DNA of 36,921 nt from positions 1 to 36,921 of IMG/VR virus record IMGVR_UViG_2531839667_000014; one strand, given 5' to 3'. A model generated the notes under the pieces. That model was not told the origin of the DNA, did no database searches, and saw only the letters and a program-made list of their open reading frames with translations. This DNA is from a virus (lineage: Duplodnaviria; Heunggongvirae; Uroviricota; Caudoviricetes). Shown here in pieces: positions 22,503-32,866 of the stretch (positions are counted from its first letter, which is position 1; the number at the start of each line of letters is the position of its first letter). Both the position numbers and the translations under genes were made by a program.

Positions 22503-22717
22503 TATTCACCTCTCGCAGCCTTTCTTCTGTCTTCTCTGATTTTGAAGTACAGATTTGTCAGATAAGTCAGGAAGCCCAGAACCAGACTCCCCAGTACACC
22601 AATCGCAGCCCACTGTGACGGACTGACCTGATCAAGCCACTGTAAAAACCAGTAGCCAGCACTGCCTGCGGAGGTGCCGTAGGCAATGCCCGTTGAAATT
22701 TTGTCCATGGATTTCAT
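22502..22717 (-). CDS. S: pinholin S21 with dual-start motif
   Basis: 71 aa [14 protein letters not shown]... with two TM segments; Met1-Lys-Ser-Met4 dual start as in phage 21 S (S21-71 antiholin / S21-68 holin). Confidence 0.9.
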
Positions 22718-22773
22718 AGCCTCACCTCCGCAAATAACGGATGGCGTAGTTTTACACTGAGAGATGAAAGGGA

Positions 22774-22802
22774 TTTGAAAAGAAAAGCCCGCAAAAGCGG
22801 GC
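22774..22802 (-). terminator. terminator-like hairpin upstream of the lysis cassette
   Basis: Minus-strand GCCCGC-tttt-GCGGGC followed by TTTTCTTTTC. Confidence 0.45.
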
Positions 22803-23009
22803 GAAATTGGATCTACAGTCAGGAAAGCACTCTATCCAACAAACCACCCACAGTTAATCGGAATAAAAGCAGAGCGCTTATGAATGATCGCCTGCCCGAA
22901 GGTTAGTATTTCTGCACAGCAATTTTGCAAAAAAAAGCGATCATTCATAACTTAAACGTCTTTCAGTCACTCCGGGCTTTCCCATCATCGCAGACTGAAA
23001 GACTCTAAC

Positions 23010-23084
<75 letters not shown>

Positions 23085-23087
23085 ATA

Positions 23088-23163
<76 letters not shown>

Positions 23164-23351
23164 ATTGGTTCTTCGGGTGTGAATGAGATGCCCGGATACA
23201 TAATTTACCCTTCCCTCGGAACCGCAGAGATAATACAAATAAATAACCAGAATTCAATATTTGCTTATTCGTCTGTCGAAAAATCCAGCAAGATGAAAGA
23301 ACCGTATTCGCAACCACCAGCGTGTTTAATGTACCGTACCGCTTTTCAGGC

Positions 23352-23377
23352 ATAAAAAACCCGCTCGGAGGCGGGCT
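23352..23377 (-). terminator. rho-independent terminator downstream of the late promoter (tR'-like)
   Basis: Minus-strand AGCCCGCC-tccga-GCGGGTT followed by TTTTTAT. Confidence 0.65.
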
Positions 23378-23423
23378 GTAAAATTCTTCTAACGTCAGGC
23401 ATAAAACGCCCATCGTTATGGAA

Positions 23424-23451
23424 AATTTACCACAAATTCGGGAAAAATCAA
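23424..23451 (-). promoter_or_regulatory. late promoter PR'-like (-35 TTGATT, -10 TAAATT) with Q-utilisation region
   Basis: Minus strand TTGATT-N16-TAAATT then ...AACGATGGG..., resembling the lambda PR' segment GGGTAAATTTGACTCAACGATGGG as I recall it; directly downstream of the Q-like gene. Confidence 0.6.
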
Positions 23452-23456
23452 CAACA

Positions 23457-24278
23457 CTATCGCGTTACCCTCTTTAACTGCCGCTCCGCCCATGTCTCTT
23501 CAATGTCAAACCGAACCACCAACGTATCGTAAAAGCGTTTCACTGATTTTTTCCACGTATCAAGCGTGATAGCACTCGTCACTTTACATATGGCATTAAA
23601 TGCCTCCGTTGATGGCAGTCTTTCATAGCCCCGACCACCACAACGCTGGCAGTTCCTGATTACAGGCATACCCCGTTTTTCCGACTCTTCACGATGAATG
23701 GCAACACCACGCCCACGGCAGTCTTTACAGGCAGTGGAAATCTCCCCCTTCCCTTTACATTCAGGACAGGAAACTTTCACCACCTCCCGGATTTTTTTCC
23801 ATTCTTCCCAGTAAGACGGATACACACCCTTCGTACACTTTGCCCATACTGGCGGCTTGCCATCCGGATACTGGACCTTGTTTGTAAAAACTTCGCTTTC
23901 AATAAATTTTTCCCCATGGCAACAAGGGCACTGCTTTTTACTCGCTGCGCTGCGGGCATAATCCTCAAAAGCATACGAAGCCATAATGCGCATCACTGCC
24001 GGTTTTATTTCTGCCGGAAGTTTTCTTAACGCCGCCACGCGATCGCACTGACTTAATGCATAATCTGCCAGTAATTCTGTTGCCCGCGCCCTGTCATTCA
24101 TACTAATGCCCATTTTCCCCAGGAACGCAGAAAATCCCATCTCAGCACGGTTTTGTGTCATACCCTGCGCAGCCATCACATCAGTGATACTCAGCGTATC
24201 TTTTGACGTCGAGACGGATGCATCAGTCAGGCCAGGCGATTTTGGGGAGTAGTATTTCGGTAAATCTTCCAGCTTCAT
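23457..24278 (-). CDS. Q: late antiterminator Q-like protein (zinc-binding)
   Basis: 273 aa with several CxxC pairs; located between rusA and the PR'-like promoter; ATGA overlap with rusA. Confidence 0.65.
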   Translation of the reverse strand: MKLEDLPKYYSPKSPGLTDASVSTSKDTLSITDVMAAQGMTQNRAEMGFSAFLGKMGISMNDRARATELLADYALSQCDRVAALRKLPAEIKPAVMRIMASYAFEDYARSAASKKQCPCCHGEKFIESEVFTNKVQYPDGKPPVWAKCTKGVYPSYWEEWKKIREVVKVSCPECKGKGEISTACKDCRGRGVAIHREESEKRGMPVIRNCQRCGGRGYERLPSTEAFNAICKVTSAITLDTWKKSVKRFYDTLVVRFDIEETWAERQLKRVTR

Positions 24279-26562: not shown

Positions 26563-26718
26563 TTACTCCTCAGGTTCGTAAGCTGTGAAGACAGCGACCT
26601 CCGTCTGTCCGGTTCGGATTCGTACCTCGCAGAGGTCTTTCCTCGTTACCAGTGCCGTCACAATGACGGTTAAACAGATGACGATCAGGGCGATTAGCAT
26701 CGCCTTTTGCTGCTTCAT
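26563..26718 (-). CDS. hok: Hok-family type I toxin (HokD/RelF-like)
   Basis: 51 aa MKQQKAMLIALIVICLTVIVTALVTRKDLCEVRIRTGQTEVAVFTAYEPEE; single TM helix; AAGGAG RBS; the track ORF is extended in frame by 19 codons. Confidence 0.9.
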   Translation of the reverse strand: MKQQKAMLIALIVICLTVIVTALVTRKDLCEVRIRTGQTEVAVFTAYEPEE

Positions 26719-27007
26719 AGCCTGCTTCTCCTTGCCTTTCGGCACGTAAGAGGCTAACCTACGTGTGCAAGTCATAGATATGGCCTCAGATTAATGTTAA
26801 GCGTCTTGCAGGACGCGTAATGTTAACTGGGGCTTTCTCTGCCTGCCTTACAGTGGCATGCCCGAGGCAGACAGCCTCAAGCACCCGCAGCAATTCTACT
26901 TAACTATCTTTCTCCCGCAAATCGTTTTTATCCCCAGCGGCAAATCGAATACACAACCAGTGCTACCGCCATTGCAATTCCTACTGTTGTGAATGCCTCA
27001 GGCCAGG

Positions 27008-29262: not shown

Positions 29263-30210
29263 TTACCCTCTGAACCCAGGTGGAATTTCGGTATCCGGTT
29301 CAGAAATATGATTCACACAACGCTGTATTGGCGAACGCCCCAAGCGAATAACCAGCTCATCCCATTTTTCGCGAAGCTTTGACGGGCTCATGATGTTTTT
29401 TACCCAGAATGGATCCCGCTGTACCCGACCAAACATTTCACAAATTTGTCTGTGAGTTCTGCCATCCAGCATCCGCATTGTGCGCACATCATTGGCCCAT
29501 GCGGTCCAGTTTGGTTCTTTCGGTCGCATGATTTCGCCATCATCGCTGGCAGCCTGCTCGTAAAGACTCACGATTCGTCCCCAGATCCACTGCGCACACG
29601 CCAAATCTTCCTGGCTACCCCACTGGCGTTTTTTCGCACTGAACACAACCGCGTCAGGGTGTCGGGTTAAAAAATCCTGTTCAGCCGTCTGCGGCTCCGG
29701 TTGCGAAGCGTCCGGACAAGAAGATCTTTTATCTGACGGATCAGGTTTTAATACTGACGGATCGGGGCCAACCATCGCCCCCCTAACCGGATGTTTTTTA
29801 TCAACGGTTGATCCATCAAAATTTGACGGGTCAACCGTTGAGGGGTCAATGTTTGACGGGTCATTTTTTACCTGGTTAATTTTTCTTTTCGGTTTATATG
29901 CCTCACGCGCCGCCGCTGCTGCTGCTTCGAGTTTTTCCACATTAAGACGGTAGATATTGCTTTCATTACGCCCACCGACCTTACGTTCCTCCTTCGTCAG
30001 CCAGCCGTTCTTTTCCAGTTCTGCTATCGCAGCTTTAACCGTTGATTCACTCTTTGCCCCAATCTGACGACGAATGGTCTCCACTGCAGGCCATGACACA
30101 CCTTCGTCATTGCTGTAATCTGCAAGGCGAGCCATTACTGCCACCCTGGATAAGATCATGCCGGTGAAGGCACACCCTTCCCAGACAAGACCATGAAGCT
30201 TGCTGCTCAT
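29263..30210 (-). CDS. replication initiation protein (O-like, N-terminal winged-helix domain)
   Basis: 315 aa; N-terminal DNA-binding domain ...SWPAVETIRRQIGAKSESTVKAAIAELEKNGWL...; the linker is encoded by the iteron cluster; position downstream of cro-like and YdaT-like genes. Confidence 0.65.
   Translation of the reverse strand: MSSKLHGLVWEGCAFTGMILSRVAVMARLADYSNDEGVSWPAVETIRRQIGAKSESTVKAAIAELEKNGWLTKEERKVGGRNESNIYRLNVEKLEAAAAAAREAYKPKRKINQVKNDPSNIDPSTVDPSNFDGSTVDKKHPVRGAMVGPDPSVLKPDPSDKRSSCPDASQPEPQTAEQDFLTRHPDAVVFSAKKRQWGSQEDLACAQWIWGRIVSLYEQAASDDGEIMRPKEPNWTAWANDVRTMRMLDGRTHRQICEMFGRVQRDPFWVKNIMSPSKLREKWDELVIRLGRSPIQRCVNHISEPDTEIPPGFRG
29734..29900. repeat. candidate origin of replication: iteron cluster plus AT-rich tract inside the initiator gene
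   Basis: 9-mer TGACGGATC/TGACGGGTC at 29734, 29755, 29824 and 29854, an inverted near-copy at 29810, an inverted pair TCAACGGTTGA/TCAACCGTTGA, then a T/A-rich stretch at 29863..29900. Confidence 0.55.
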
Positions 30211-32452: not shown

Positions 32453-32508
32453 TTTCTGGTGACGTTTGGCGGCATCTGTTTGCCCATGAACTGATGTCCG
32501 CCCTTTTT
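32453..32508 (+). ncRNA. dicF: DicF-like small RNA (cell-division inhibitor sRNA)
   Basis: TTTCTGGTGACGTTTGGCGG...GATGTCCGCCCTTTTT: the 5' and terminator-hairpin ends match K-12 DicF as I recall it; sits between ydfC and dicB; exact ends uncertain. Confidence 0.6.
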
Positions 32509-32677
32509 AAAGTGAATTTTGTGATGCGGTGAATGCGGCTAAGCGCACGCGGAACAGTTAAAGCTAAAAACAGTGTTATGGGTGGATTCTCTGTATCCGG
32601 CGTTAATTGTTAACTGGTTAACGTCACCTGGAGGCACCAGGCACCGCATCACAAAATTCATTGTTGAGGACGCGATA

Positions 32678-32866
32678 ATGGAAACGTTATTACCAAACGT
32701 TAATACGTCTGAAGGTTGTTTTGAAATTGGTGTCACTATCAGCAATCAGATATTTACTGAAGATGCCATTAATAAAAGAAAACACGAACAGGAACTGCTA
32801 AATAAAATATGCATTGTTTCGATGCTGGCCCGTTTACGTCTGATGCAAACAGGATGCAGGCAATGA
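32678..32866 (+). CDS. dicB: cell division inhibitor DicB
   Basis: 62 aa METLLPNVNTSEGCFEIGVTISNQIFTEDAINKRKHEQELLNKICIVSMLARLRLMQTGCRQ, near-identical to K-12 DicB from memory; GAGGA RBS; the track ORF is over-extended upstream. Confidence 0.9.
   Translation: METLLPNVNTSEGCFEIGVTISNQIFTEDAINKRKHEQELLNKICIVSMLARLRLMQTGCRQ

Follow-up and report, generated by a model that had tools for sequence, protein, structure and literature searches.

The perfect 14-bp inverted repeat upstream of the holin gene is the central helix (stem B) of a non-coding RNA of about 190 nt, which is encoded on the minus strand and consists of three hairpins. The window, i.e. the whole stretch of viral DNA under analysis, has a length of 36,921 nt, and positions refer to it unless another locus is named. 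The structured core of the RNA, comprising stems A, B, and C, extends from 22827 to 23009 (minus strand) and starts with the first base after the CCA end of a tRNA-Gly.

The inverted repeat and the fold of the RNA

The inverted repeat is real and lies far beyond the level of chance. A repeat search yielded two arms of 14 nt with 100% complementarity, at positions 22878-22891 (TTATGAATGATCGC) and 22937-22950 (GCGATCATTCATAA), which are separated by a spacer of 45 nt. The first-pass annotation had recognized the perfect 14-bp repeat, but had placed the second arm one base too far, at 22938-22951, and had given the loop as 46 nt. It had also regarded a chance origin as unlikely, and the numbers agree: this is the sole perfect inverted repeat of at least 14 bp with a loop of up to 100 nt in the 36.9-kb window, versus a mean of 0.01 such repeats in 200 dinucleotide-preserving shuffles. 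A second perfect inverted repeat of 11 bp (22958-22968 / 22993-23003), 7 nt away from the first one, had been missed, and so had the two small hairpins inside the presumed 46-nt loop, which is thus itself folded, and an intrinsic terminator (22787-22802, minus strand) that lies between the 14-bp repeat and the holin gene. A perfect inverted repeat of 11 bp with a short loop also occurs at 29801-29811 / 29831-29841; at this length, about one per window is expected by chance.

RNA folding of the late leader had been proposed as a check and was performed for the 238 nt of minus-strand RNA from the CCA of tRNA-Gly to the terminator. The predicted fold has an energy of −88.8 kcal/mol, with a z-score of −5.8 in comparison to shuffled sequences, and stems A, B, and C each fold identically when they are taken alone.

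Stem A (22958-23003, minus strand) is preceded by a single-stranded 5′ end of 9 nt. Its perfect helix is formed by the 11-bp repeat mentioned above, and a short variable loop serves as its cap. It contains an asymmetric internal loop, GC-GAU-GA-UGGG (22981-22991) opposite CCCG-GA-GU (22969-22976), which is invariant wherever stem A is intact; stem A is missing from some homologues.

Stem B as a whole domain (22878-22950, minus strand) consists of a 16-bp helix that closes a three-way junction, and it is characterized by an MFE z-score of −4.1 and by covariation. The 5′ arm (UUAUGAAUGAUCGC, 22937-22950, minus strand) corresponds to the second arm of the first-pass annotation at its corrected coordinates, and the 3′ arm (GCGAUCAUUCAUAA, 22878-22891, minus strand) to the first arm. 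The 14 bp of the repeat are extended to 16 bp by a U.G and a U-A pair at 22892-22893 / 22935-22936. Within the junction, the inner hairpin B1 (22909-22933, minus strand) has an 8-bp stem (UUUUUGCA/UGCAGAAA) and a nearly invariant loop of 9 nt (AAAUUGCUG, 22917-22925), and a U-run directly 5′ of B1 differs in length by 1-2 nt among the homologues. The junction also contains the mini-hairpin CC-UUCG-GG (22895-22902, minus strand). The role of the 14-bp helix would be architectural, i.e. it would hold the junction that displays the conserved loop.

Stem C (22827-22877, minus strand) abuts stem B without any linker. Its basal 8 bp include four to five compensated pairs, while the distal helix is G.U-rich and has a nearly invariant, G/U-rich 3′ strand (GGGUGGUUUGUUGG, 22836-22849). 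A possible loop-loop contact between AAAUUGC in loop B1 and GUGGUUU in stem C is compatible with all sequences; its partners are nearly invariant, and the pairing is G.U-rich. An additional closing helix, CAGUUAG/CUGACUG, which generates a four-way junction in the MFE fold of the window, was rejected, because it is lost in the homologues and its two sides vary in an uncorrelated manner.

Conservation, covariation, and modularity

Of 5426 complete E. coli genomes, 536 (about 10%) contain the element, and the query coverage is at least 80% in 529 of them. Four E. coli phages, including the Shiga-toxin phage phi467, carry it at about 95% identity, and phage HK639 at about 75%. It also occurs in genomes of Enterobacter hormaechei and Shigella flexneri, and further homologues were found in one Salmonella replicon, in many IMG/VR contigs, and in metagenome contigs. 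The metagenome hits to a loose pattern were mostly chance matches, about 45 of 120 being true after filtering with BLAST.

Two alignments were used to characterize conservation of the fold. The first one (A2) contains 55 distinct full-length sequences, which were folded jointly with RNAalifold. The three hairpins were recovered, and 15 of the 62 pairs had changed on both sides with pairing kept. Standard pairs made up 98.7%, compared to 39-48% when the 3′ partners were slid by 1-3 columns. The covariation score of A2 was reached by none of 500 shuffles; related sequences can beat shuffles without any structure, and it is the control with slid partners that argues strongly for the structure here. 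The second alignment (A3) contains 48 distinct sequences of stems B and C, new variants included; 97.4% of its cells were paired, and 11 pairs were compensated. Overall, about 100 distinct homologues keep 97-99% of the predicted pairs, compared to about 42% with slid partners, and 11-15 pairs are compensated, although the number of independent compensatory events is small, because most changes separate two clades.

The inverted repeat itself participates in the covariation. Among the 14 bp, full compensation is seen at two positions (A-U to U-A and U-A to G-C), and one A-U pair is changed to G-U. Covariation extends to the two additional pairs of the 16-bp helix, and at the base of stem C at least four pair combinations were seen in A3. 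The “perfect” 14 bp are specific to the clade of the window, since the HK639-like clade has a fixed A.C mismatch at one position. The repeat is thus both present and covarying in diverged homologues, which had been named as a further check.

The pairs also reveal the strand. G-U pairs represent 13.5% of the cells, and the fraction of paired cells is 98.7% for the minus-strand RNA, but only 85.5% for the plus strand. The G-U content and the drop in pairing on the plus strand show that the structure belongs to the RNA of the late-sense strand. The idea of the first-pass annotation that the repeat could form a stem-loop in the late mRNA is thus supported, with a helix that is kept by compensatory changes and is strand-specific through its G-U pairs.

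The element is modular. One group of metagenomic variants consists of stems B and C only, without a tRNA and without stem A; in this group, the stop codon of a small membrane ORF immediately precedes the element, a lysis cassette follows after about 700 nt, and some members are devoid of a nearby terminator. In another variant, the tRNA-Gly is joined straight to stem B. These variants lacking stem A or the tRNA indicate that stems B and C represent the core of the element, with the 14-bp helix as its backbone. At four loci, the tRNA-Gly is truncated at differing points, and the start of the element is unchanged.

Gene neighbourhood

The late region on the minus strand contains, in this order, a Q-like gene, a terminator, tRNA-Thr, tRNA-Gly, about 290 nt without a conserved ORF, a class II holin gene, and a lysozyme gene. 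The Q-like antitermination protein gene (23457-24278) was assigned from the RefSeq annotation of a genome with 99.9% identity, and a tR′-like intrinsic terminator (23358-23377) lies just downstream of it. A sigma-70 promoter-like sequence, TTGAAT-16-TATTAT, followed by a GC-rich discriminator (23230-23257), precedes tRNA-Thr(UGU) (23088-23163) and tRNA-Gly(UCC) (23010-23084), which is the last tRNA of the array and at the 3′ end of which the RNA begins. The RNA is followed by a variable linker of 24 nt and by an intrinsic terminator, GCCCGC-UUUU-GCGGGC with a U-tract (22777-22802). The holin ORF (22502-22717) is outside of the RNA, so that the inverted repeat is indeed situated between the tRNAs and the holin gene, as had been noted at first; all these features are on the minus strand.

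Two further observations concern the region close to the Q-like gene. A direct repeat, TCAGGCATAAAA(A/C)(A/G)CCC, at 23346-23362 and 23395-23411 flanks the tR′-like terminator, and positions 23351-23441 (minus strand) gave a weak Trp-leader-like Rfam match (E = 0.011), which is probably a resemblance of leader plus terminator only.

The position next to the tRNA array is conserved. The first base of the element directly follows the CCA of tRNA-Gly(UCC), both in the window and at almost all homologous loci. The composition of the array is Met-Lys-Thr-Gly at 63 loci, Thr-Gly, as in the window, at 14 loci, and Met-Arg-Thr-Gly at 11 loci, in addition to others. Most related arrays have a conserved TTGCAA-17-TATTAT with a GC-rich discriminator directly before the first tRNA, in many mosaic contexts, and this promoter motif is usually located just downstream of a tR′-like terminator. 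At the other end, the terminator after the element is strong in the window. Of 54 distinct downstream variants, 37 likewise possess it, about 12 retain a stem of 3-4 bp only, and about 5 have lost it or carry a replacement. In many close relatives (e.g. L002, L010, and L023), G-to-T changes have turned GCGGGC into GCGGTT or GCGTTT; the stem of the terminator is thereby shortened to 3-4 bp and the U-run is longer, so that termination before the holin gene may leak in these cases.

The flanks are mosaic. A Q gene like that of the window is found in a minority of loci only, the HK639-like clade carries other lysis cassettes, and the loci of Enterobacter, Salmonella, and HK639 show an identical arrangement with Q and lysis genes that are unrelated. 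The lysis genes are about 110 nt away from the element at the shortest distance and about 700 nt at the longest, with some unrelated cassettes at 470-700 nt. All homologues detected have a Q-type gene on one side and a lysis cassette on the other, and all are encoded on the late-sense strand. The combination of the promoter motif, the tRNAs, the structured RNA, and usually a terminator suggests an autonomous insert inside the late operon. The tRNAs and the RNA thus look like a promoter-to-terminator “moron” between Q and the lysis genes of a lambdoid prophage, with a predicted promoter.

The tRNAs of this insert offer some side observations. The tRNA-Thr and tRNA-Gly of the window (23010-23163, minus strand) are 100% identical, in two aligned pieces, to chromosomal tRNA-Thr/tRNA-Gly of E. 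coli, where the match is annotated as Tyr / Thr / Gly. This identity of phage and chromosomal tRNAs suggests that they were acquired from the host. In related loci, the array has a second member that is absent from the window and represents one tRNA-like scaffold (CCGCCACTAGCTCATC…GGTTCGAG…GGTGGCGG.CCA; examples at L017:923-996, L006:5537-5609, L071:3695-3767, and L012:11001-11077). Its anticodon loop is hypervariable in sequence and length, with UUU, UCU, AAA, UUA (a “stop” anticodon), AGG, and CAG, and some of the loops have 5-8 nt and were left unnamed by ARAGORN.

Possible functions and comparison with known RNAs

In the explanation that we regard as the best one, and to which we give about an even chance, the element is a discrete, stable RNA, i.e. 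the 3′ trailer of a tRNA operon within a moron, which acts in trans. The predicted tRNA promoter would allow transcription of the unit even in lysogens, and after Q action transcription would also originate from pR′. Processing of the tRNA 3′ end would release the trailer, and the hairpins together with the terminator would stabilize it. The released RNA could act by base pairing, with either the invariant loop or the G/U-rich strand as the pairing region, and would then be a sponge or a chaperone-dependent small RNA, or it could serve as a protein-binding scaffold via the kink-turn hairpin described below. An action in trans is favoured by the nearly invariant single-stranded and wobble motifs, by the presence of other RNA genes next to the element, and by a layout that is modular and resembles that of a gene. 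Within the phage, possible targets with complementarity to the G/U-rich strand or loop B1 did not occur more often than expected by chance.

A function in cis, as an element of the Q-antiterminated late transcript, is a serious but rather doubtful alternative. It could involve protection of the 5′ end, processing by RNase III or RNase E, or pausing or read-through at the next terminator, and it is with the same reserve that we consider that excision of the tRNAs leaves an mRNA for the lysis and structural genes that begins with three strong hairpins. The constant position of all homologues on the late-sense strand between a Q-type gene and the lysis cassette would be in accord with such a role, but it is expected anyway from recombination, because lambdoid phages recombine with preservation of synteny. 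The long and stable helices and the lack or weakening of the terminator in some variants also point to a function in cis; the stem B and C module, which can follow an ORF instead of tRNAs and has no terminator in some cases, fits to a segment of a longer transcript as well as to a discrete RNA. In contrast, neither the sequence nor the length of the downstream linker and terminator is constant, a conserved alternative (antiterminator) pairing was not found, and the variable distance to the lysis genes includes extra terminators and another RNA gene. Furthermore, the single-stranded 5′ end ahead of stem A would be a poor shield, and the nearly invariant loops and the kink-turn motif exceed the needs of a stabilizer. 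The expression platform of a riboswitch or an attenuator was rejected, because no conserved helix connects the core and the terminator, and the linker and the terminator vary between clades.

The internal loop of stem A opens a further view. Kink-turns are sharp helical kinks whose folding depends on protein or Mg, and they are known from Kt-7 of rRNA, box C/D RNAs, and several riboswitches. Judged by inspection of the sequences, the loop fits to the kink-turn consensus, with a canonical helix, a 3-nt bulge (GAU), tandem G.A/A.G pairs, and a short helix, and the pattern is invariant in 55 of the 55 sequences of A2. Deviations from the consensus are that the Salmonella copy has a degenerate loop with UA for one GA, the short helix being compensated nevertheless, and that some homologues have no stem A. 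No L7Ae-type kink-turn binder is known in Enterobacteria. The kink-turn hairpin and the invariant loops might bind a factor of the host or the phage, as a decoy or a scaffold; the RNA would then represent a new class of phage-encoded structured RNA that operates via proteins instead of base pairing, but we consider this unlikely. If it were true, the RNA would be co-expressed with a tRNA array whose second member, in related phages, is the tRNA-like scaffold with the hypervariable anticodon loop, and both together would be a module for host takeover or counter-defence in about 10% of E. coli genomes.

The first-pass annotation had envisaged control of lysis timing, and a plain long hairpin ahead of the holin gene, with an effect on the translation of the holin or on the time of lysis, has become very unlikely, because the RNA travels with the tRNA array and not with the holin. 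The same RNA is found upstream of unrelated lysis genes, and the class II holin of E. coli E2348/69 is situated behind an unrelated upstream region. It is true that the element lies on the same strand as the holin gene, 160 nt upstream of its start, and that a close clade keeps a fixed distance of about 278 nt from an anchor motif to the holin; the fixed spacing in this one clade is due to recent common ancestry (at least 95% identity). In addition, the intrinsic terminator and the variable linker intervene ahead of the holin ribosome-binding site, and no conserved pairing with the holin leader was found.

Even less probable is the second early proposal, i.e. a protein-binding site in duplex DNA. 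A perfect 14-bp palindromic pair in non-coding DNA might be bound by a protein dimer at an operator, a recombination site, or a packaging site, but a spacer of 45 bp is long for a dimer, and the repeat is embedded between two other covarying hairpins. The half-sites differ between clades while complementarity is kept, and this, like the strand asymmetry, does not fit a site in duplex DNA; the many conserved G-U pairs of the minus strand would be A.C on the other strand or devoid of meaning in a duplex.

The probability is negligible that a 38-aa ORF (22832-22948, minus strand), with its start in the 5′ arm of stem B, encodes a small protein: a similar N-terminal peptide (…FLQNCC…LTFG) is readable in HK639 and in locus L131, but 7, 8, 9, or 10 bases make up the U-run that separates the ATG from the conserved part, with a shifted frame in the about 20% of the distinct variants that have 7 or 9-10 bases instead of 8, and a 1-nt indel between the clades alters the C-terminal half, so that the 38-aa frame is not preserved and the region is non-coding; moreover, start codons and lengths differ, and the substitutions follow base pairing rather than codon position.

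For comparison with known RNAs, region 22400-23600 was scanned with cmscan and Rfam release 15 at E-values up to 10, and only the two tRNAs and noise were obtained, with no match for the element. The HK639-type variants and the variants with stems B and C only likewise yielded no match for the element in an Rfam scan at this E-value limit. The covariance models covered include those of RtT (a family that we take to be part of release 15), AgvB, AsxR, STnc100, Esr41, DicF, and IsrK/IsrJ, and none of them matched the element. Short resemblances to what we presume to be GcvB sequences, i.e. GGUCUGCGAU, UUUGCAA.AUUG, and G/U-rich runs, were given no weight, and GcvB was not matched in the Rfam scan of the element. 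Diagnostic 13- and 14-mers of the element, in DNA and RNA letters, retrieved nothing in a full-text literature search, and the element is not mentioned in the HK639 literature examined. The scans also gave other RNA matches in the window. In the early region of the prophage, the sok antitoxin RNA, which belongs to a hok/sok-type module, was matched strongly (26713-26886, minus strand; 100 bits, E = 1e-21). A DicF-like match (32454-32503, plus strand; 43.5 bits versus a gathering score of 48) is directly followed by an STnc100-like match (32501-32710, plus strand; 39 bits versus 47).

The slot from pR′ to the lysis genes has been documented as a hotspot of small RNA genes in prophages, with AgvB/AsxR as an example (PMC4104026). 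PasA, PasC, PasD, and STnc100 are located in the same slot (preprint 10.64898/2026.05.13.724894). The element shares with all of these the slot in lambdoid prophages of E. coli, and a terminator usually follows. In contrast to AgvB/AsxR and PasA, which are convergent, it is sense to late transcription, and it is 3-4 times longer than AgvB/AsxR (51-60 nt). Identity with AgvB, AsxR, or STnc100 was rejected, because the Rfam models give no match on the element. The same applies to PasA-D, for which the published coordinates and probes differ and the probe sequences are absent from the element; PasB is situated between tail genes, and the PasA region of E2348/69 does not align with the region of the element. 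An STnc100 gene follows right after the terminator of the element in HK639 (L001:2206-2411; 52.6 bits, above the gathering score), and likewise directly after it at one metagenomic locus (L198:1153-1262). These adjoining STnc100 genes show that the element sits in a string of RNA genes. A weak isrJ-like match was also observed on the pR′ leader of HK639 (L001:2838-2910). Prophages of pathogenic E. coli are known to rewire the regulation of their host through small RNAs encoded between Q and the lysis genes. The element would add a large, well-structured, and widespread RNA that has been missed by current annotation and that is present also in a Shiga-toxin phage and in Shigella, Enterobacter, and Salmonella.

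The put antiterminator RNAs of HK022 and HK639 have about 70 nt and two hairpins, are located just downstream of early promoters, and replace N. Like them, the element is phage-encoded and consists of consecutive stem-loops on a transcript that passes terminators, and HK639 contains both. Unlike them, it has about 190 nt and is located in the Q-dependent late region, behind tRNA genes.

The 3′ trailer RNAs of tRNA operons in E. coli comprise 3′ETS-leuZ of the glyW-cysT-leuZ operon and the RtT RNA of the tyrT operon. RNAs of the 3′ETS type are released by RNase E, are bound by Hfq, and sponge or pair with other RNAs. 3′ETS-leuZ is listed as a small RNA in an EPEC data set (PMC8550237). As in these cases, the element is located directly 3′ of the last tRNA of a polycistronic transcript, the group behind the small ORF being the exception, and tRNA 3′ processing would set it free as a by-product. 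It also has the shared promoter motif of the tRNA operon and a terminator, the latter being weak or absent in about one third of the distinct variants. In contrast to 3′ETS-leuZ and RtT, it is phage-borne, no similarity in sequence or model was detected, Rfam having given no match to a trailer RNA, and one group of its variants is attached to no tRNA; furthermore, it is much larger and more structured than 3′ETS-leuZ (about 50 nt). The best class for the element is a previously unannotated small RNA of the prophage moron or tRNA-trailer type. With regard to annotation, an RNA gene followed by a terminator makes up the “non-coding leader” that precedes the holin gene in these prophages. The modular build, with an optional stem A and a core of stems B and C, and the invariant loops offer handles for experiments, and the element would be a phage example of a tRNA-operon trailer that is used as a functional RNA.
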